This document shows, in pieces, positions 13,449-50,922 of a stretch of 64,000 bases of DNA. The notes beneath the pieces are model-generated. The model did no database searches. It was not told the origin of the DNA and saw only the letters and a program-made list of their open reading frames with translations. This DNA comes from an uncultured virus (IMG/VR IMGVR_UViG_3300043568_001465) (Duplodnaviria; Heunggongvirae; Uroviricota; Caudoviricetes). Position 1 is the stretch's first letter; each line of letters begins with the position of its first letter. Position numbers and translations under genes: made by a program. The stretch lies in IMG/VR virus record IMGVR_UViG_3300043568_001465; one strand, given 5' to 3'.

Positions 13449-14120
13449 ATGACACCCAAAGATTACAAAGATTTCGGTTTGTACGCAAAAGACCGCGGAA
13501 TTAGTTCCTTAAACATGCATTATCATCAAAAAAATATTGAGGGTAGTTTAACTCCATACGTCTTAGAGGAAAGACAACTGAACGTTACACAAATGGATGT
13601 GTTTTCACGTTTAATGATGGAAAGAATTATTTGGGTGGCCGGTGAGGTTAATGATAATATGTCGGTTATAACTCAAGCACAGTTAATGTTCTTGGACAGT
13701 TTAGATACTAATGACATAACTATGCATATCGATACCCCAGGCGGAAGCGTTAAATCTGGTTTATCAATGGTTGATGTTATGGATTACATTAAGTCCGATA
13801 TTAGGACGATTAATACTGGAATGGCTGCATCTATGGGTTCAATCCTTTTAGGGGCAGGAACGAAGGGAAAACGCGGTTCATTGAGATTCTCAAGAACAAT
13901 GTTACACCAATCATCTGGAGGTTTTAGAGGTAACATTCAAGATGCTAAGATTGATATGGTTGAGTGGGATAAATTAAATAACACATTATTTGACCTATTG
14001 GGTGGTTATTGTGGTAAAACAGGTGAACAAGTTAAACAAGATGCGTCTAGGGATCTCTGGTTGAGTTCTGAAGATGCTTTAGCATACGGTATTATTGACG
14101 AAGTTGTCAAAAGAAAATAG
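13449..14120 (+). CDS. clpP: ATP-dependent Clp protease proteolytic subunit
   Basis: MDVFSRL..ERII, AQLMFL, TPGGSV, GMAASMGS (Ser), MLHQ (His), RD..L...AL.YGIID. Confidence 0.95.
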   Translation: MTPKDYKDFGLYAKDRGISSLNMHYHQKNIEGSLTPYVLEERQLNVTQMDVFSRLMMERIIWVAGEVNDNMSVITQAQLMFLDSLDTNDITMHIDTPGGSVKSGLSMVDVMDYIKSDIRTINTGMAASMGSILLGAGTKGKRGSLRFSRTMLHQSSGGFRGNIQDAKIDMVEWDKLNNTLFDLLGGYCGKTGEQVKQDASRDLWLSSEDALAYGIIDEVVKRK

Positions 14121-14150
14121 GGTTAATTTATTCAACATTTTGGTTTCAAC

Positions 14151-14181
14151 AAAAAGGGAAGTTTTTAACTTCCCTTTTTTT
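14151..14181 (+). terminator. intrinsic terminator, possibly bidirectional
   Basis: AAAAAGGGAAG ... CTTCCCTTTTTTT. Confidence 0.85.
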
Positions 14182-14298
14182 ATTTATTCCCTTATATTTA
14201 TTTCTAGACCTTGTGGTTGAAGTCGAAGTGTCCCAGAGGCATTTGAGTTGGAATTGATACCAACGAATTCGGGTTCAAATACAAAAAAATATAAGGAA

Positions 14299-15138
14299 AT
14301 GAACAGAAGAATTTCAGTTAACACAACTGGTCTTGCTGTACCACAATCTTTCATTACTAAAGGTAAACAAAGATTAAAACAGCACATTGACACCGTATAT
14401 CTTAATAACGGTGATGAGTTCGAAATCGAACTTTTTAATCCAACACACAATAAAGTTTTAGCAAAAATTGAGATGAATGGTAATGCCGTTGGTAATGGTA
14501 TTATAATTCGTCCAGGTGAACGCGTTTTCCTCGAAAGATATCTTGATGAGGCAAAGAAGTTTTTATTTGAAACATATGTTGTAAATGGTGATAATTTAGA
14601 AGTACAAGAAGCAATTGCTGATAATGGTGATGTGGTTATTAAGTTCTATAACGAAACGCCTCCACCGACATATTATAGCGGTAATTCAGGCACGTTAACG
14701 ATATCTAACCCAGGTTGGATAAACAACACGGGGACACCATTTACCTACACTACACATAATACTTTAGGTATGAATACATTTAATCCTACTAGTATTACAA
14801 CAACGGGAACAAATGCGGTTTATACTTCCAATTCATCTTTAACAAGTGGAACGTTTAGTACCTCAAATACATTCTTAAACAACCCCGATAAGGTTAAAAA
14901 ATCTAAAAGACAGGTTGAAACAGGTAGAGTTGAAAAGGGTTCCAATTCTAATCAATCCTTTACATACGATAGTACATCTTTCAATAGTTGGGCGTCTAAC
15001 ACAAATTGGTGGAAAATAAAACCCAAATCAACTCAATTGGTAACAATGGATGATTTGGCTACATATTGCACTGAATGTGGCAGTAGAAGGAAAAAAGACA
15101 CATATAAGTTCTGCCCACAATGTGGCACAAAATACTAA
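14299..15138 (+). CDS. hypothetical phage protein with Thr/Ser/Asn linker and C-terminal double zinc ribbon
   Basis: ATG 14299 preceded by TAAGGA; YCTECG...FCPQCG at the C-terminus. Confidence 0.7.
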   Translation: MNRRISVNTTGLAVPQSFITKGKQRLKQHIDTVYLNNGDEFEIELFNPTHNKVLAKIEMNGNAVGNGIIIRPGERVFLERYLDEAKKFLFETYVVNGDNLEVQEAIADNGDVVIKFYNETPPPTYYSGNSGTLTISNPGWINNTGTPFTYTTHNTLGMNTFNPTSITTTGTNAVYTSNSSLTSGTFSTSNTFLNNPDKVKKSKRQVETGRVEKGSNSNQSFTYDSTSFNSWASNTNWWKIKPKSTQLVTMDDLATYCTECGSRRKKDTYKFCPQCGTKY

Positions 15139-15163
15139 TAAACTAATCACAAGGTCTAACTCT

Positions 15164-15186
15164 GAGGTCGCTTTTGCGACCTCTTT
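15164..15186 (+). terminator. probable intrinsic terminator
   Basis: GAGGTCGC-TTTT-GCGACCTC followed by TTTGTATTT. Confidence 0.7.
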
Positions 15187-15209
15187 GTATTTATAATAAA
15201 ACAGATAAT

Positions 15210-15545
15210 ATGAAGATTGATAAAACAAACATCCTATTAGTTTTGATTGCTTGTTTGGCTGGCTATACCATATTTCAAAATCAAGGTATAAAAACTGACG
15301 TTGCGGGTTATAACGCTAAAATTGAATCCTTACAAAAGGAAATTGATTCGGTTTATATTGCAAACAAAGAAATAGACAATCAAATCGAAAAAGTTGATAA
15401 TCACATTGTTAATGTTGATAAAGATATCGACAACGTGACAAAAAACATAACTATTATTAAAAACAACACAGATGAAAAAGTTAATTCTATTACTACTATT
15501 GGTAATGTTGAGCTTGAGCAGTTATTCGCAAACAGATACAACTAA
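15210..15545 (+). CDS. membrane-anchored coiled-coil protein (i-spanin-like)
   Basis: N-terminal TM segment then coiled coil; its 3' end overlaps the next gene by 74 nt. Confidence 0.45.
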   Translation: MKIDKTNILLVLIACLAGYTIFQNQGIKTDVAGYNAKIESLQKEIDSVYIANKEIDNQIEKVDNHIVNVDKDIDNVTKNITIIKNNTDEKVNSITTIGNVELEQLFANRYN

Positions 15546-17546: not shown

Positions 17547-18353
17547 ATGAAAAATACCAGCCCAATGGTTAAAACCGAAGAACTAAAATATTACATCAAG
17601 GATTTAAAAAGAATCCCAGTAATAGAAGCGCAAAGAGAATTTGAAATTTTCATGGCGTTTAAAAACAAAGAGACAACCAAAGAACAAAAAAACGCTTTAG
17701 TTGAAGAATTGATTTTAGGTAATTTAAGATTTGTTATTTCCGTTGCTAAGATGTATCAAAATCAAGGAATGGATTTATTGGATTTAATTTCAGAAGGTAA
17801 TATTGGTTTAATGAAAGCCATTGATCGCTTTGACGTTACTTCTGGTTTTAAATTTATATCATATGCTGTGTGGTGGGTGAAACAATCTATAATGCAGTCG
17901 TTAACGGAAAATTCAAGAACAATAAGAATACCGTCAAACGTTTTGCAAGATATTCAAAAGCAAAAGAAAATAAAAAATGAAGAGGATAGTTACCTTATTG
18001 AATACAATGATAATGTTTTAATCGGTATTCCAACAACAGTTGATTTATATAAAGAAATAAATGAAGATGGTGACACATTAATAGAAGTTATTGCTAATCC
18101 TAATTCAATTGACCCTATGGAATCTATGAATAATCTTGATGAGATTAAGAAAAAGATGAAGTATATGTTAGCAATCCTAGATGACAGAGAGAAAACCATT
18201 ATTGAGGGTTATTTTGGTTTGTGTGGTACCGAAAGAAACCTAGATGACCTAGGTGAAGAATTTGGTTGCACCAAAGAACGTATTAGACAATTAAAAGATA
18301 AAGCAATTAAGAAATTGCGAAACGAGAGTTTTGGACTCCTAAACTATTTATAA
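17547..18353 (+). CDS. rpoD: RNA polymerase sigma-70 factor, Bacteroidetes primary-sigma type
   Basis: NLRFVISVAK.YQNQG..L.DLISEGNIGL.KA..RFD...GFKFISYAVWW (region 2); region 4 HTH TKERIRQ.K.KAIKKLR; no region 1.1. Confidence 0.9.
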   Translation: MKNTSPMVKTEELKYYIKDLKRIPVIEAQREFEIFMAFKNKETTKEQKNALVEELILGNLRFVISVAKMYQNQGMDLLDLISEGNIGLMKAIDRFDVTSGFKFISYAVWWVKQSIMQSLTENSRTIRIPSNVLQDIQKQKKIKNEEDSYLIEYNDNVLIGIPTTVDLYKEINEDGDTLIEVIANPNSIDPMESMNNLDEIKKKMKYMLAILDDREKTIIEGYFGLCGTERNLDDLGEEFGCTKERIRQLKDKAIKKLRNESFGLLNYL

Positions 18354-26357: not shown

Positions 26358-26882
26358 ATGGAAAACAAATGGTATGTGTTAAAAGTAACACCAGGAAAAG
26401 AAAGACAAATGAATGAAAATTTTAATACGTTAATCGCATTAGATAGAATGGGTTACGTAAATAGATTCATATGCCCAATGGAAAAGGAGTTTGTTGTATT
26501 AAGAAAAAAGAAGGTTTTAAGGGATAAAATATTGTATAGCGGATATCTTTATTTTGAAACACCAAGAGAATTAAACGATAATGAATTAAAAGAAATCTCA
26601 AGCCATCCTTTTGTTATGTCTATGTTAGGGGATAAGAAACCTAGATTGATGGGTAGACACGATATTGGTAAAATTATTAAAGATGAGATGTTAAATGAAC
26701 ATAAGTATGTAAAATCAATTACCTTTGTAGCAGGTGAGGATGTTGTATTAACAGACGGACCATTTGCTTCATTCAACGGTACCATTATAGAAATTAAAGG
26801 TGACAAAGTGGAATTGCAAGTTAAAATTTTTGGTCGCTTAACACCTGTAACAATAGACATTCAAAATATTAAAAAGATATGA
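26358..26882 (+). CDS. nusG: NusG-family transcription elongation/antitermination factor
   Basis: NGN domain KWYVL.V..GKE...GYLY; KOW domain F..GE.V...DGPFASFNG.I.EI...V.IFGR.TPV. Confidence 0.9.
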   Translation: MENKWYVLKVTPGKERQMNENFNTLIALDRMGYVNRFICPMEKEFVVLRKKKVLRDKILYSGYLYFETPRELNDNELKEISSHPFVMSMLGDKKPRLMGRHDIGKIIKDEMLNEHKYVKSITFVAGEDVVLTDGPFASFNGTIIEIKGDKVELQVKIFGRLTPVTIDIQNIKKI

Positions 26883-34296: not shown

Positions 34297-37200
34297 ATGG
34301 CAAACGAATTTAAAATTAAGAACGGACTCATTGTGTCCGGCTCTGCGGAAATTGAAAATAATTTAATCGTACATGGTACATTAACAGCGGATTTGGTAAA
34401 CATCTCTCTTGTTAGTTCATCAGTACTTTATGAAAGTGGCTCAACCAAATTTGGTAACACTTCAGACGATTTTCATGAATTTACAGGTTCATTATCTATT
34501 AGTGGTTCGTTAAACATTAACGGAACATCTTATACTTCAGCAACAAGCGGAACATCAGGTACTTCTGGAACGTCTGGAACTAGTGGTTCATCAGGAACTG
34601 CCGGATCTAGTGGTACGTCAGGTACATCTGGAAGTTCAGGAACTGCTGGTACTTCGGGTTCTAGTGGCTCAAGCGGAACATCAGGAAGTTCAGGTTCTTC
34701 AGGGACGAGTGGAAGCTCAGGTACGTCTGGGTCTTCTGGTTCAAGTGGAACATCGGGAACGAGTGGGTCTTCAGGAAGTTCTGGTTCGTCAGGAACGAGT
34801 GGTACATCTGGTACTAGTGGCACGTCAGGTTCGTCAGGTAGTTCGGGGTCAAGTGGAACTTCAGGTTCTTCAGGTTCGTCTGGAACATCAGGAAGTTCGG
34901 GGTCTAGCGGAACGGCTGGTACTAGTGGAACATCAGGTTCTTCAGGTAGTTCTGGAACAAGTGGTAGTTCAGGGTCAAGTGGTACGTCTGGGACGAGTGG
35001 CACATCCGGGTCTTCAGGTTCTAGTGGCACATCAGGTAGTTCAGGTTCATCTGGAACAAGTGGCACTTCAGGTACGTCAGGGTCTTCTGGTTCTAGTGGT
35101 ACATCAGGGTCTTCTGGTAGCTCAGGAACGTCAGGTTCTAGTGGTACTAGTGGTAGTTCAGGTTCTAGTGGAACATCAGGTTCTTCAGGTAGTTCTGGAA
35201 CAAGTGGAACTTCTGGTACATCGGGATCAAGTGGATCTAGTGGAACATCGGGATCAAGTGGATCTAGTGGAACATCAGGTTCTTCGGGTTCAAGTGGTAC
35301 CAGTGGTACATCTGGCTCTAGTGGATCTAGCGGTACTGTAACAATGACTGGAACACAAGATAACGGTATCTTAACACTTAATGGTTCCTCACCAAATGCT
35401 ACAGTTGAAAGTAATCTAAGATTTGATGGCTCATTACTAACGGTTGTCGGCAATGAAACTATATCAGGTTCATTAATTGTTACAAACGACTTTACAGTAT
35501 TAGGTTCTTCTTCAATATTATATGTAACATCATCACAACTTAGAATTGCAGATAATATTATCACGGTTAACACTTCAAATCCAGGCGCCAGATTTGGTGG
35601 TTTAGAGGTATTTGATTCTGGTTCAATTAATAATGCCACCGGATCAATTCTTTGGGATTCTGTTAATAACAGATGGATATATCAAAATTCAAGTGATGCT
35701 GGTTATGGTGGGGGTATGTTTTTATCTGGACCACGTAGTTCAGGGTCTTTAGGGTCTGAATTATCGTTAACAAGTGGTAAAATAGCAAAATCGGCAGGTG
35801 GTGACCATCTTGACGATTCAAATATAACTGATACGGGTACTTTAGTATCAATAAATTCAAATACAGAAATAACAGGTACGTTAAGAGTAACTTCAAATTT
35901 ATTTATTAACGGAACTTCATATACTGCTGCTACTTCAGGTACTTCGGGTACATCAGGTTCAAGTGGTACGTCTGGAACATCCGGTTCATCGGGAACTGCG
36001 GGTTCATCTGGAACATCAGGTTCCTCTGGGTCAAGCGGAACTTCAGGTTCTAGTGGGTCTAGTGGGACATCGGGTTCAAGTGGTACATCAGGTTCTAGTG
36101 GGTCAAGCGGAACTTCAGGTTCTAATGGCTCATCGGGAACATCAGGAACAAGCGGAACCTCTGGTTCTTCTGGCTCTAGTGGTACATCGGGTAGTTCAGG
36201 GTCATCAGGTACTAGTGGAACGTCAGGTTCTTCTGGTAGTTCGGGGTCAAGTGGAACGTCAGGTTCTTCTGGTAGTTCGGGGTCAAGTGGAACGTCAGGT
36301 TCTTCTGGGTCAAGTGGCACTTCGGGATCAAGCGGGTCTAGTGGGACGTCAGGTTCTAGTGGTTCTAGCGGCACATCAGGCAGTTCTGGTTCTTCTGGTT
36401 CATCAGGTACTTCTGGCTCTAGCGGATCTTCTGGCACTTCAGGATCTAGTGGGTCTTCAGGAAGTTCTGGTTCATCGGGAACATCAGGTTCAAGCGGATC
36501 TAGTGGAACATCGGGGTCTAGTGGAAGTTCAGGAAGTTCTGGTTCTAGTGGGTCTTCAGGAAGTTCTGGTTCGTCAGGTTCTAGTGGGTCTTCTGGCACG
36601 TCTGGATCTAGTGGTTCATCAGGTTCATCAGGTTCATCAGGTTCATCAGGTTCATCGGGAAGTTCTGGTTCATCAGGCGCTGCAACAATTAATAGTAATG
36701 TAAACGATTATGTTTTAACAGCAACAGGAACCGCCGGACTAATTCAAGGTGAATCAAATTTAACATTTGATGGTTCAACATTATCAACGAGTAACGTTAC
36801 CGCTACTGGTACGTATAATACAAATGCGTCATCAAGTAGAAACAAATATAACGTTTATTCAACGGGTGCAAGTCCTTATGCTATTGGTATGCAATCGGCA
36901 ATCACTTATGGTGGTTTAAATGACTGGGGAATGACCTTCCAATTTAATAACGACAGCGGTAGAGGATTCTGGTGGGGTGACGAAGGACATTCAACAGCAC
37001 AAGGTGCTATGGCATTAACTACTGACGGTAGATTAACAGTGGCAAATAATGTTAGAATCGGTTATGGTGAATCTGACGTCACAACACCAACACTACCATT
37101 ACAAGTATATGGTTCTGGTGGAACAATTGTTGACATTCAAGGTTCTAGTGGACAGTTATTCTCGGTAACAGATGATTTAACAGGTGACATATTCTCTATT

Positions 37201-37491
37201 TCAGATATATCAGGTATACCATTTATAAATGTTAACACAACGAATGGTACTAGTTTTGGATATCATATATTCCCATCAGTTAACAATACCTATAACTTAG
37301 GTACATCAGCACTTAGATGGGCGAACGTTTATACGAATGACTTACATTTAAGTAACGAAGGCAAAGAGGGTGGAAATGATATTGACGGAACAACAGGTAA
37401 CTGGACAATTCAAGAAGGTGAAGAAAATCTGTATATTGTCAATAATAAGAATGGTAAGAAGTTCAAAATCAATTTAACCGAAATAGAATAA
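34297..37491 (+). CDS. tail fibre/adhesin with two long (Gly-Ser-Ser/Thr)n tracts
   Basis: 1064 aa; SG(T/S) triplet tracts; C-terminal LG....RWANVYTNDLHLSN...GNWTIQEGE..L module typical of phage fibres. Confidence 0.8.
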   Translation: MANEFKIKNGLIVSGSAEIENNLIVHGTLTADLVNISLVSSSVLYESGSTKFGNTSDDFHEFTGSLSISGSLNINGTSYTSATSGTSGTSGTSGTSGSSGTAGSSGTSGTSGSSGTAGTSGSSGSSGTSGSSGSSGTSGSSGTSGSSGSSGTSGTSGSSGSSGSSGTSGTSGTSGTSGSSGSSGSSGTSGSSGSSGTSGSSGSSGTAGTSGTSGSSGSSGTSGSSGSSGTSGTSGTSGSSGSSGTSGSSGSSGTSGTSGTSGSSGSSGTSGSSGSSGTSGSSGTSGSSGSSGTSGSSGSSGTSGTSGTSGSSGSSGTSGSSGSSGTSGSSGSSGTSGTSGSSGSSGTVTMTGTQDNGILTLNGSSPNATVESNLRFDGSLLTVVGNETISGSLIVTNDFTVLGSSSILYVTSSQLRIADNIITVNTSNPGARFGGLEVFDSGSINNATGSILWDSVNNRWIYQNSSDAGYGGGMFLSGPRSSGSLGSELSLTSGKIAKSAGGDHLDDSNITDTGTLVSINSNTEITGTLRVTSNLFINGTSYTAATSGTSGTSGSSGTSGTSGSSGTAGSSGTSGSSGSSGTSGSSGSSGTSGSSGTSGSSGSSGTSGSNGSSGTSGTSGTSGSSGSSGTSGSSGSSGTSGTSGSSGSSGSSGTSGSSGSSGSSGTSGSSGSSGTSGSSGSSGTSGSSGSSGTSGSSGSSGSSGTSGSSGSSGTSGSSGSSGSSGSSGTSGSSGSSGTSGSSGSSGSSGSSGSSGSSGSSGSSGSSGTSGSSGSSGSSGSSGSSGSSGSSGSSGAATINSNVNDYVLTATGTAGLIQGESNLTFDGSTLSTSNVTATGTYNTNASSSRNKYNVYSTGASPYAIGMQSAITYGGLNDWGMTFQFNNDSGRGFWWGDEGHSTAQGAMALTTDGRLTVANNVRIGYGESDVTTPTLPLQVYGSGGTIVDIQGSSGQLFSVTDDLTGDIFSISDISGIPFINVNTTNGTSFGYHIFPSVNNTYNLGTSALRWANVYTNDLHLSNEGKEGGNDIDGTTGNWTIQEGEENLYIVNNKNGKKFKINLTEIE
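34546..35336 (+). repeat. (SGT/SGS)n coding repeat, tract 1
   Basis: 9-nt periodicity with mixed synonymous codons; roughly 85-90 triplets. Confidence 0.9.
35934..36678 (+). repeat. (SGT/SGS)n coding repeat, tract 2
   Basis: As tract 1, preceded by the same INGTSYT.ATSG entry motif; roughly 80 triplets. Confidence 0.9.
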
Positions 37492-39630: not shown

Positions 39631-40305
39631 ATGGGTTTATATAGAGGACCAAAAATATTTACTGAAGGTTTAACATTTGCTTTAGACGCTGGAACCACAA
39701 GGTCATATCCTGGTACGGGGACATCTTGGACAGCTATTAGAGGTAATAGTGTTGGTACACTATATAATGGTGTTGGTTACACAACTGCCAAAGGTGGTGG
39801 TTTAACTTTTGATGGATCAAATGACTATGTTGAGTTAGATAGAAATGACATTTTATTAGGCACAAACCCATTTACATTTGAATGCTTTTATACTATAAAT
39901 GCAACTAATGGGGGTGGTGAAATATTTGGAACATATGGTTCAGGATATTCATCATCAAGTTATGTTTGGATATCTGGTGAATATGGATTTTATATTGGGG
40001 GTGCGGTTTATTTTCCCGGATACCCACTTGGTGCTGGAACATATTGCATGACAGTAACCAGAACAAGTTTTGGATACACAGTTTTGTATAAAAATGGCGT
40101 AGCTGTTAGTACCGGAACACTAACTGGAAGTTTAACTGCCGGACCAAATTATAGAATCGGTGCTGACACAACTAGTGCAGGTGGTGTTGGTGGTGAGAGA
40201 TTAAATGGGACTGTTTATTCAATAAAAGTATATGACCGAGATTTTACAGCGGATGAAGTTTTAAATAATTATAATGCACAAAAATCAAGATACGGATTAA
40301 CTTAA
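39631..40305 (+). CDS. LamG/ConA-like lectin domain virion protein
   Basis: GL.F.LDAG...SYPG.G..W, FDGSNDYV, LYKNG, VYDR..TA.EV..NYNA.K.RYGL. Confidence 0.8.
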   Translation: MGLYRGPKIFTEGLTFALDAGTTRSYPGTGTSWTAIRGNSVGTLYNGVGYTTAKGGGLTFDGSNDYVELDRNDILLGTNPFTFECFYTINATNGGGEIFGTYGSGYSSSSYVWISGEYGFYIGGAVYFPGYPLGAGTYCMTVTRTSFGYTVLYKNGVAVSTGTLTGSLTAGPNYRIGADTTSAGGVGGERLNGTVYSIKVYDRDFTADEVLNNYNAQKSRYGLT

Positions 40306-50187: not shown

Positions 50188-50922
50188 ATGAATTTAACAG
50201 TTAAACATAAGAAACCGTATTCAATTGTTCCATTAGACAAATACAATATTTGTAAATACACCGCAAACCCTGTAATGAATGAAAAATCTTACACGTTATT
50301 TGTTGATGTTAAAATAAATAAAGATGAGTGTGATAAAGAAGCTGGAATAATTGTTAGACCAGGTATGCACGCTGGGTTTTTATTTGCACAACCTAATCTT
50401 CTAAAGTTTGGTTTCTGGTTTTTTAAAAACGATGAACCAATTTATAAAGAGGTTTTCAAATTATTAACTGACGATGATTTTGATGAACATTTGTTTTGTG
50501 TAGCAACCGATGACGCAGATACAAAGATTATAAAAGTATACGTTAATAGCAATTTAATTGGTGAGATTGATTACAGTGAATATGATAGAAAACACAGCTA
50601 CGTTGGTACACCTTATTATTTTGGTGTTGCTAATCCATTCTTAGTTGCTAGACCTTTTGATTATTATGGTTCATTTAATTATAGATTTGCGGGTTTATTA
50701 GATGTGGTTGTTGACGATATTGAGGAATTAAAACAAATACAGGAGCACATTACAGTACATCCAAGATTAGAATATAATATCTTCAAAGAAGATTATAAAT
50801 ATAAACCAAATTTTGTATTTTACTTTGATTTTGAAAACCAAAGCAATTACAAGGTCTGGGATGTTTCTGAGAACAATAATTTTCTATGCAGGATTTTAGA
50901 TAGAGACAATAATTTAATTTAA
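50188..50922 (+). CDS. stand-alone LamG-like domain protein
   Basis: KVYVN..LIG, YYFGV.NP and YFDFEN....VWD.S.NNN resemble the inserts in the GT7 genes. Confidence 0.5.
   Translation: MNLTVKHKKPYSIVPLDKYNICKYTANPVMNEKSYTLFVDVKINKDECDKEAGIIVRPGMHAGFLFAQPNLLKFGFWFFKNDEPIYKEVFKLLTDDDFDEHLFCVATDDADTKIIKVYVNSNLIGEIDYSEYDRKHSYVGTPYYFGVANPFLVARPFDYYGSFNYRFAGLLDVVVDDIEELKQIQEHITVHPRLEYNIFKEDYKYKPNFVFYFDFENQSNYKVWDVSENNNFLCRILDRDNNLI

Follow-up and report, generated by a model that had tools for sequence, protein, structure and literature searches.

A stretch of 64,000 nucleotides (nt) from the uncultured virus IMGVR_UViG_3300043568_001465 of IMG/VR (Caudoviricetes), referred to below as the window, raises the question of whether the two ends of a single-gene messenger RNA (mRNA) are joined by base pairing, and what such pairing could be good for. 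The gene concerned (14299–15138, + strand) encodes a phage protein of 279 amino acids (aa) with a zinc ribbon at its C-terminus. The 14-nt segment TAGACCTTGTGGTT (14205–14218) lies on one side of it and the complementary segment AATCACAAGGTCTA (15145–15158) on the other, 926 nt apart; a repeat search of the window found these arms to be 93% complementary at the DNA level, and the sole non-Watson–Crick position, G14216 opposite T15147, would be a G-U pair in + strand RNA. The first-pass annotation of the window had described this pairing of 14 base pairs (bp) with one G-U and had read it either as a stem closing the transcript end to end or as the terminal inverted repeats of a mobile cassette. 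The pairing is indeed present, and the comparative data indicate that the helix, termed helix A, is very probably a selected feature at the RNA level. In the 5′ to 3′ direction, the locus comprises a ClpP-like protease gene, a hairpin, a promoter box, the 5′ arm, an 80-nt leader, the zinc-ribbon gene, the 3′ arm, and a second hairpin.

The significance of the repeat within the window was assessed in several ways. Among 4000 random segment pairs of equal size and spacing, five contained a helix of at least 14 bp with no more than one G-U pair, and 15 contained at least 11 exact bp, while among 64 genes of the window the zinc-ribbon gene has the longest flank helix (14, followed by two genes with 12 and one with 11). 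An energy-based duplex test of the flanks was not significant, 8.7% of 1000 random pairs scoring equally, and RNAduplex favoured a different long imperfect duplex between the flanks. Exact 11-mer inverted repeats 300–1500 nt apart occur 53 times in this AT-rich window. Because of these random-pair, duplex-energy and 11-mer counts, the repeat on its own is suggestive only, and it is because of the comparative data that end-to-end pairing is accepted as real. Chance complementarity without function could be argued from the level of about 1 in 800 per gene for the repeat alone, with about 64 genes scanned, and from the outcome of the energy test; it is refuted by compensatory changes in relatives and by a different complementary pair in a far clade, so that its probability is practically negligible. 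Two other repeats were noted in the course of this search. A perfect 13-nt inverted repeat connects the coding sequences of the ClpP-like gene (13654–13666) and the zinc-ribbon gene (14664–14676), and is probably due to chance, since the window holds five exact 13-mers of such kind. The word GACCTTGTG occurs four times in the window against 0.28 expected, but its extra sites at 1852 and 39696 are coding and have no leader, and a repeated element was rejected.

A protein-guided scan of viral contigs yielded 38 loci at 100–40% protein identity, to which a metagenome scan added 80, giving a total of 118; 106 of them with both ends gave 50 distinct arm pairs, while 12 were left out as having no anchor, no arm match or an incomplete open reading frame (ORF). 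A profile-guided scan added more distant relatives. Both arms were found nearly everywhere in the flanks of the 38 loci, and the complementarity is concentrated in a conserved core of 12 bp, formed by GACCUUGUGGUU (14207–14218) and AAUCACAAGGUC (15145–15156), of which each position pairs in 47–50 of the 50 distinct arm pairs. In the window, where the 3′ core starts 6 nt past the stop codon, 14205–14206 and G14219 could extend the core by three pairs, so that the arms on the + strand span 14205–14219 and 15144–15158. Thus, of the 14-bp stem initially claimed, 12 pairs are conserved, and the two outer pairs are kept in about half of the 50 arm pairs.

Covariation was evaluated by counts on an alignment of 28 distinct arm-to-terminator units, together with shuffles. 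In the leader and helix A, 93.6% of cells pair, versus 29–47% if the partner is slid by one to three columns, and double changes were found at 13 pairs versus 4.7 in shuffles, with none of 500 shuffles equalling the observed value. Within helix A, G-C is replaced by A-U in three sequences and by U-A in two, and one position is G-U in 23 units, A-U in two and G-C in one. On a FastTree protein tree, the first core pair switched from G-C to A-U at least four times; the switch was two-sided in all four independent contrasts, which are too few for formal significance in a sign test (p 0.125), and the half-changed state was absent from all 106 rows.

Divergence of the helix itself is seen in a far clade (L170 and L174/L180), with 38–42% protein identity, where a helix with almost no sequence in common with that of the window is found at the homologous place, AGAGCCTGAAA/TTTCAGGCTCT and AGAGCCTGAC/GTCAGGCTCT, respectively; two far-clade loci differ from each other by a compensatory A-U versus C-G change. 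An automatic longest-helix search detected a flank helix of at least 9 bp in 103 of 103 distinct related loci, although in four of these (L031, L059, L091, and L162) an A/T-rich helix with terminator-like runs was longer than the homologous one. The complementarity of the flanks and its compensatory changes are therefore retained in homologs, and both the closing stem proposed at the RNA level and the covariation suggested as its check are borne out, two-sided changes included.

The nature of the mismatches in the arms bears on the molecule in which they pair. Counted over the 12 core positions, the 50 distinct arm pairs contain 47 G-T/T-G cells, only 2 A-C/C-A cells, and 4 other mismatches. 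Since G-T far outnumbers A-C, and the two are equally bad in DNA, the selected partner appears to be + strand RNA rather than a DNA repeat; G-U pairs are frequent also in the two leader helices P2 and P3 described below, on the same strand. Hence the reading of the single G-U pair of the window as a sign of RNA proved correct and could be generalised.

A repeat acting in DNA, either as the ends of a mobile gene cassette or as operator half-sites co-evolving with a bound protein, has to be considered all the same, since transposon ends also 'covary' and the unit does change its place. Of the 38 loci, 9 have it between the ClpP-like gene and the gene that comes next, and 29 have it elsewhere. 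The empty-site alleles that had been proposed as a check are represented by one case: in the 316-kb record L124, positions 2179–2247, only about 66 nt separate the ClpP-like gene from a homolog of the gene at 15210 (95% identical) directly after it, while the zinc-ribbon unit is located about 174 kb away in the same record. The unit has thus moved between genome contexts as a self-contained promoter-to-terminator cassette. The arms are not the termini of this cassette, however: conservation across contexts sets in at the promoter, about 37 nt ahead of the 5′ arm. A TATTTAT(AAT) promoter box follows a hairpin at each of the two junctions in the window (14118–15209), which also fits a DNA-level repeat and suggests that recombination at these boxes shuffles promoter/terminator cassettes. 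In other respects, too, the arms do not resemble transposon ends: Pfam and PHROG scans revealed no transposase or integrase domain in the gene, and there is one copy in the window and one in each of three relatives' records. Together with the 47 to 2 ratio of mismatches and the independent RNA-type covariation of the adjoining leader on the same strand, these features make a DNA-level function very improbable, and the terminal inverted repeats offered as the second option by the annotation are disfavoured.

In the 38 loci, the leader, from the 5′ arm to the start codon, shows higher conservation than the gene itself, and its middle part (14219–14276, + strand) is predicted to fold into a Y-shaped three-way junction, on the basis of covariation, RNAalifold and single-sequence folds. 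The stem P2 (14219–14227/14268–14276) shows double changes in seven of nine pairs and P3 (14228–14232/14238–14242) in two of five, whereas P4 (14247–14251/14260–14264) and the junction strands UUGA (14243–14246) and GAA (14265–14267) are nearly invariant in the main clade. The Y is followed by an A-rich linker (14277–14298), unpaired in the predicted fold and containing a conserved UAAGGA (14292–14297), and is preceded by the 5′ arm, which passes into P2 without an unpaired base. RNAalifold applied to the 5′ part alone returned the same junction with 19 pairs, seven of them with double changes. The same Y also appears in single-sequence folds of seven leaders, including the far clade, in which P4 is GCGG/CCGC and the arms are written AGAGCCUGAAA/UUUCAGGCUCU or AGAGCCUGAC/GUCAGGCUCU.

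A covariance model of the leader has one match in the window (14205–14282, 101 bits) and one in each of the three near-complete relatives' records. The next best score in the window, 19.8 bits (E 0.011), belongs to 50815–50858 on the − strand, where 44 nt of the 78-position model are matched, and is likely noise. No match at the gathering score was found in the window with Rfam release 15, and a search of 14150–15250 at E up to 10 returned 16 weak matches, terminator-like or noise, the best with 24.7 bits versus a cut-off of 56.

Other identities of the leader were also tried. A tRNA-like origin was rejected, as ARAGORN found no tRNA or tmRNA genes; so was a hammerhead-like reading of the pattern UUUGAG-stem-CGAA, whose core is too short by eye and which has no Rfam match. 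A coding leader, in the form of a TTG-started extension from 14248, loses its frame, as the length of the A-run varies among relatives. Retron-like a1/a2 repeats are not supported either, since there is no reverse transcriptase among the 53 Pfam-scanned window proteins and an ORF lies between the arms.

The association of the leader with the other elements could be examined in the reverse direction, starting from the RNA. A scan of viral contigs for leader words gave more than 118 pattern matches, 80 of which were examined with the covariance model; 35 were hits with 66–104 bits, and the remainder were chance pattern matches. In four of the 35 hits the ORF ran off the locus, and in all 31 with a complete downstream ORF the encoded protein belongs to the zinc-ribbon family (blastp E 1e-60 or better). 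A closing helix of 9–16 bp, then a hairpin, were present in the same 31 of 31. Therefore, the leader, the gene, the 3′ arm and the terminator constitute one unit.

The position of the arms relative to the ends of the transcript was deduced from the promoter and the terminator. The putative promoter of the unit occupies 14169–14204 (+ strand) and includes a −10-like box, TATATTTAT, at 14193–14201; its TATTTAT part (14195–14201) ends 3 nt before 14205, in agreement with the spacing noticed earlier. The consensus of 76 distinct upstream 50-mers reads TTTACA, 16 nt, TATACT, 7 nt, and A(−1)G(0) of the arm, with T at −8 conserved in 97%, T at −5 in 96% and A at −1 in 93%, and the same geometry could be read by eye in the far clade. 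In the window, the place of the −35 region is taken by the 3′ half and the T-run of the terminator of the ClpP-like gene. Judging by this promoter, transcription would start at 14206/14207, so that the two outer pairs of the stem probably lie at or before the start, which would explain why pairs outside the 12-bp core are not conserved. The promoter word TTATAYTTAT is not enriched in the window (52 found versus 53 expected).

At the other end, an intrinsic-terminator-like hairpin (15164–15183), which together with its T-rich tail extends to 15193 on the + strand and is kept in relatives, starts 5 nt after the 3′ arm of the window (15158) and 7 nt after the core (15156). Of 93 distinct 3′ flanks, 90 have such a hairpin 0–10 nt (median 5) after the arm core, and the stems of these hairpins comprise 58 different sequences. 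The distant loci L163, L164, and L166 have a longer 3′ untranslated region (UTR), in which the arm is 17–46 nt past the stop codon and still beside the terminator; thus, it is the adjacency of arm and terminator, not of arm and stop codon, that is conserved. The annotation had the 3′ arm between stop codon and terminator and the unit bounded by terminators on both sides, as is the case: a hairpin of the same type with a 13-pair stem plus a T-run (14151–14179, + strand) belongs to the upstream ClpP-like gene.

Six RNA runs contain small shares of the stretch. Contigs assembled in four metatranscriptome studies, matching either the window or relatives, include the leader, the 5′ and some of the 3′ coding region and a portion of the next gene; none of them reaches the 3′ arm or displays a start, an end or a back-joint, uncovered parts being uninformative.

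In the predicted structure of the 991-nt transcript of the window, helix A closes both the minimum free energy (MFE) and the centroid structure, with a z-score of −4.2 on 20 shuffles. Of 89 distinct transcripts of relatives, 25 were folded, and the MFE structure kept all 12 helix pairs in 19 of them and 9–11 pairs in five more, and none in L035. The calculated duplex energy is −16.5 kcal/mol for 12 bp and −20.4 kcal/mol for the 15 bp of the window. The predicted fold leaves the start region unpaired whether or not helix A is formed.

What, then, could the pairing of the ends accomplish? Decay that depends on the 5′ end, performed by RppH-type enzymes and RNase E/G/J, is hindered by a base-paired triphosphate 5′ end. 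By analogy with the hbs mRNA of Bacillus subtilis discussed below, we propose, at close to an even chance, that the main role of helix A is protection of the ends and stability of the complete monocistronic mRNA. According to this model, the leader would fold before the rest of the mRNA, and the newly made 3′ UTR would capture the 5′ end, with a gain of about −16.5 kcal/mol for 12 bp, shortly before the terminator hairpin is formed. The finished mRNA would then have both ends in one hub, with helix A stacked on P2 and the terminator alongside; the base-paired triphosphate 5′ end would be a poor entry for 5′-end-dependent decay, the 3′ end would be doubly protected, and stabilisation would be limited to complete transcripts. 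Since the A-rich ribosome-loading region is open, we propose that translation would not be blocked. The data show the complementarity and its covariation, the strand, the linkage of the parts and their place relative to promoter box and terminator; the start site, pairing inside the cell and its effect on decay are what we infer.

The same helix could instead be a site of processing or decay. RNase III usually needs about two helical turns, and helix A, alone or stacked on P2 (12 + 9 bp), could serve as a substrate for an RNase III-like enzyme, by which the gene would be cut out of read-through transcripts, as with ribosomal RNA (rRNA) stems, or its decay would be triggered, as in the icaR mRNA. 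The 5′ arm is continuous with P2, which could give about 21–23 stacked pairs, RNA-library contigs of relatives extend upstream of the arm, as precursors would, and the strong conservation of the helix sequence fits recognition by a protein. On the other hand, the continuous helix A alone is only 12–15 bp, and its stacking on P2 is a guess; in all contexts a conserved promoter immediately precedes the arm, which speaks for a primary 5′ end at that point; and no RNase III gene was found among the 53 Pfam-scanned window proteins, with 12 small ORFs outside the scan. Although pairing of 5′ and 3′ UTRs is described as making an RNase III site in icaR (PMC7821165), we regard a processing role here as unlikely.

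Another set of possibilities concerns translation. The protein itself consists of an N-terminal beta-sandwich, a low-complexity middle rich in T, N and S, and the zinc ribbon, which is the sole Pfam match and a weak one (PF13240, E 1.7e-4, below the cut-off); it has no PHROG. The AlphaFold2 model has a pLDDT of 53.5, a Foldseek search against PDB returned nothing at E 1e-3 or better, only generic beta-sandwiches, and a profile search against PDB sequences gave nothing below E 0.5, while in ESM Atlas the protein matches only clusters of viral 'hypothetical proteins'. As for the translation start, a 5-nt core of the Shine–Dalgarno (SD) sequence is present at −20 to −4 in only 2 of 65 long ORFs of the window, and the 20 nt upstream average 47% A. 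The TAAGGA at 14292–14297 ends 1 nt before the ATG; in relatives the conserved UAAGGA is 1 nt before the ATG in the main clade and 5–8 nt in distant clades. The annotation had pointed to it as an SD-like motif that is rare here, and rare it is, but it is no classical SD sequence because AAGGA, 1 nt from the ATG, is too close.

With these features, the hub might bring stop and start codons together for ribosome reloading, or act as a platform for a regulator, possibly the zinc-ribbon protein itself in autoregulation. Both codons are within about 6–22 nt of the hub, local reloading could matter in a host group that seems to use SD sequences rarely, the near invariance of P4 and the junction nucleotides resembles that of RNAs binding proteins or ligands, and the leader is tied to one gene family. 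This is a minor but real possibility, against which stand the distance of 17–46 nt between stop codon and arm in L163, L164, and L166, where the arm remains beside the terminator, the start region that is unpaired with or without the helix and so offers no obvious switch, and the protein, in which Pfam, Foldseek and the PDB-sequence profile identified no RNA-binding domain. A more far-reaching version, in which the hub is a device for a functionally circular mRNA, either a closed loop returning ribosomes or a stem from which cleavage and subsequent RNA ligation would produce a covalent circle, appears improbable; a host hardly using SD sequences would suit it, and the invariant Y junction would be the docking site of a factor.

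Returning to end protection, we find that a number of observations count against it or against the data on which it is built. The model leaves the role of the Y leader unaccounted for. In two relatives, RNA-library contigs extend 38 and 52 nt upstream of the arm (X16 record 2 and X17 record 9), which reflects either read-through from upstream or DNA in the libraries. Should read-through be common, the 5′ arm would be internal to the transcript, and the step of 5′-end protection would fail. Thus, the start of the transcript at the 5′ arm, as originally placed, agrees with the promoter geometry and is called into question by these two contigs, all RNA-library data being assembled contigs, which are unable to show where transcripts start or end. 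Since the helix starts 6 nt past the stop codon in the window, a terminating ribosome reaches into it, and translation may open helix A. The locus L035 has a broken pair (C opposite U, following a G to T change in the 3′ arm), no terminator-like hairpin and none of the 12 pairs in the predicted helix, and yet its gene is intact (60% identity). Moreover, sequence conservation of the 12 bp goes far beyond the needs of a helix with a purely structural role, which hints at sequence-specific recognition or a second constraint outside the end-protection model. Finally, the 103–106 loci come from two collections, so that some may be one phage sampled twice, and the protein tree is a quick, unrooted FastTree tree.

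The virus carrying this unit is a huge phage of lake water: its IMG/VR record is 287 kb long, those of relatives are 290–330 kb, and the DNA runs containing the stretch are freshwater or lake metagenomes. The host is presumably of Bacteroidota type. No close relative of the region was found in the INPHARED phage collection, where the ClpP-like gene alone (13449–14120; PF00574, E 2.3e-54) has matches, namely in huge Prevotella Lak phages and one uncultured 635-kb phage. Downstream of the unit, the next gene begins at 15210, 27 nt past the second terminator hairpin. The window encodes a sigma-70-family protein with regions 2 and 4 (17547–18350) and also a NusG-like protein (26358–26879), and the phage may therefore direct its own promoter use and elongation control. 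Farther along, the gene at 34297–37488, whose product of 1064 aa carries collagen triple-helix repeats (PF01391, E 3.7e-70), coincides with a GC-rich stretch (0.41–0.42 versus about 0.32 elsewhere). The long gene run at 39631–63572, with concanavalin-like lectin domains, family-7 glycosyltransferases, three radical-SAM proteins, a double epimerase/dehydratase, a carbamoyltransferase and an APS-kinase-like protein, looks like a cluster for sugar modification or fibre decoration.

We found no description of the element in open-access papers and preprints. For mRNAs of the bacterial type, pairing of the ends has been described in a few instances, each in a single species (hbs, icaR and RNAIII), whereas here the architecture appears to be held by selection across more than 100 phage loci, with full replacement of the helix sequence, which would make it the clearest comparative proof we found that such pairing can be a long-lived selected trait. 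The end pairing is joined to a structured leader that is new and absent from Rfam. The unit is also a compact natural module, consisting of a promoter, the 5′ arm, the Y leader, an open ribosome-loading region, the gene, the 3′ arm and a terminator, and, if its role is stabilisation, it could serve to increase expression in hosts that are difficult to engineer.

Among the better-known systems, leader–trailer stems of rRNA precursors pair across long RNA and are cut by RNase III. The phage element resembles them in pairing across a long functional RNA; however, those stems are much longer and belong to a polycistronic precursor, while here the helix has 12–15 bp and a promoter directly before the 5′ arm. 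Bacterial mRNAs, such as ompA, are also stabilised by 5′-terminal stem-loops, with which the unit would share a base-paired 5′ end as protection, but these are local hairpins, and the 5′ arm of the phage unit has its partner in the 3′ UTR, at a distance of about 930 nt.

Closer parallels are found in two mRNAs whose own UTRs interact. In Staphylococcus aureus, whose icaR mRNA was studied by Ruiz de los Mozos et al. (2013, PMC3868564), the 3′ UTR of this mRNA, according to PMC7821165, binds its 5′ UTR, so that the ribosome-binding site is masked and a site for RNase III arises. Pairing of the 3′ UTR with the 5′ UTR of the same mRNA is common to both systems; unlike the icaR duplex so described, helix A ends at 14218/14219, about 80 nt upstream of the start codon at 14299, which is unpaired in the MFE structure. 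In Bacillus subtilis, the hbs mRNA forms a duplex of about 14 nt (−19 kcal/mol) between its 5′ UTR and a stretch directly preceding the intrinsic terminator, and this duplex shields the leader from an endonuclease (Braun, Durand & Condon 2017, PMC5737220). The phage unit agrees with that description in having a single small gene in its mRNA, 5′ and 3′ UTRs with complementary segments (of one transcript, judging by the promoter box and the terminator), a 3′ arm shortly before the terminator and a comparable stability (−16.5 to −20.4 versus −19 kcal/mol). For the further property of the hbs type, an RNA fate that changes when pairing is broken and recovers when it is restored, the natural compensatory changes in relatives serve as a proxy only. 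The two differ in that the 5′ partner in hbs, as described there, is downstream of two leader hairpins, whereas here it is at the predicted very 5′ end, and in that hbs belongs to Firmicutes, while the phage presumably infects a Bacteroidota-type host. They also differ in their evolutionary persistence: the functional 3′ UTR of hbs is, according to PMC7821165, not conserved in orthologous mRNAs of close relatives, whereas the pairing in the phage unit covaries down to 38% protein identity.

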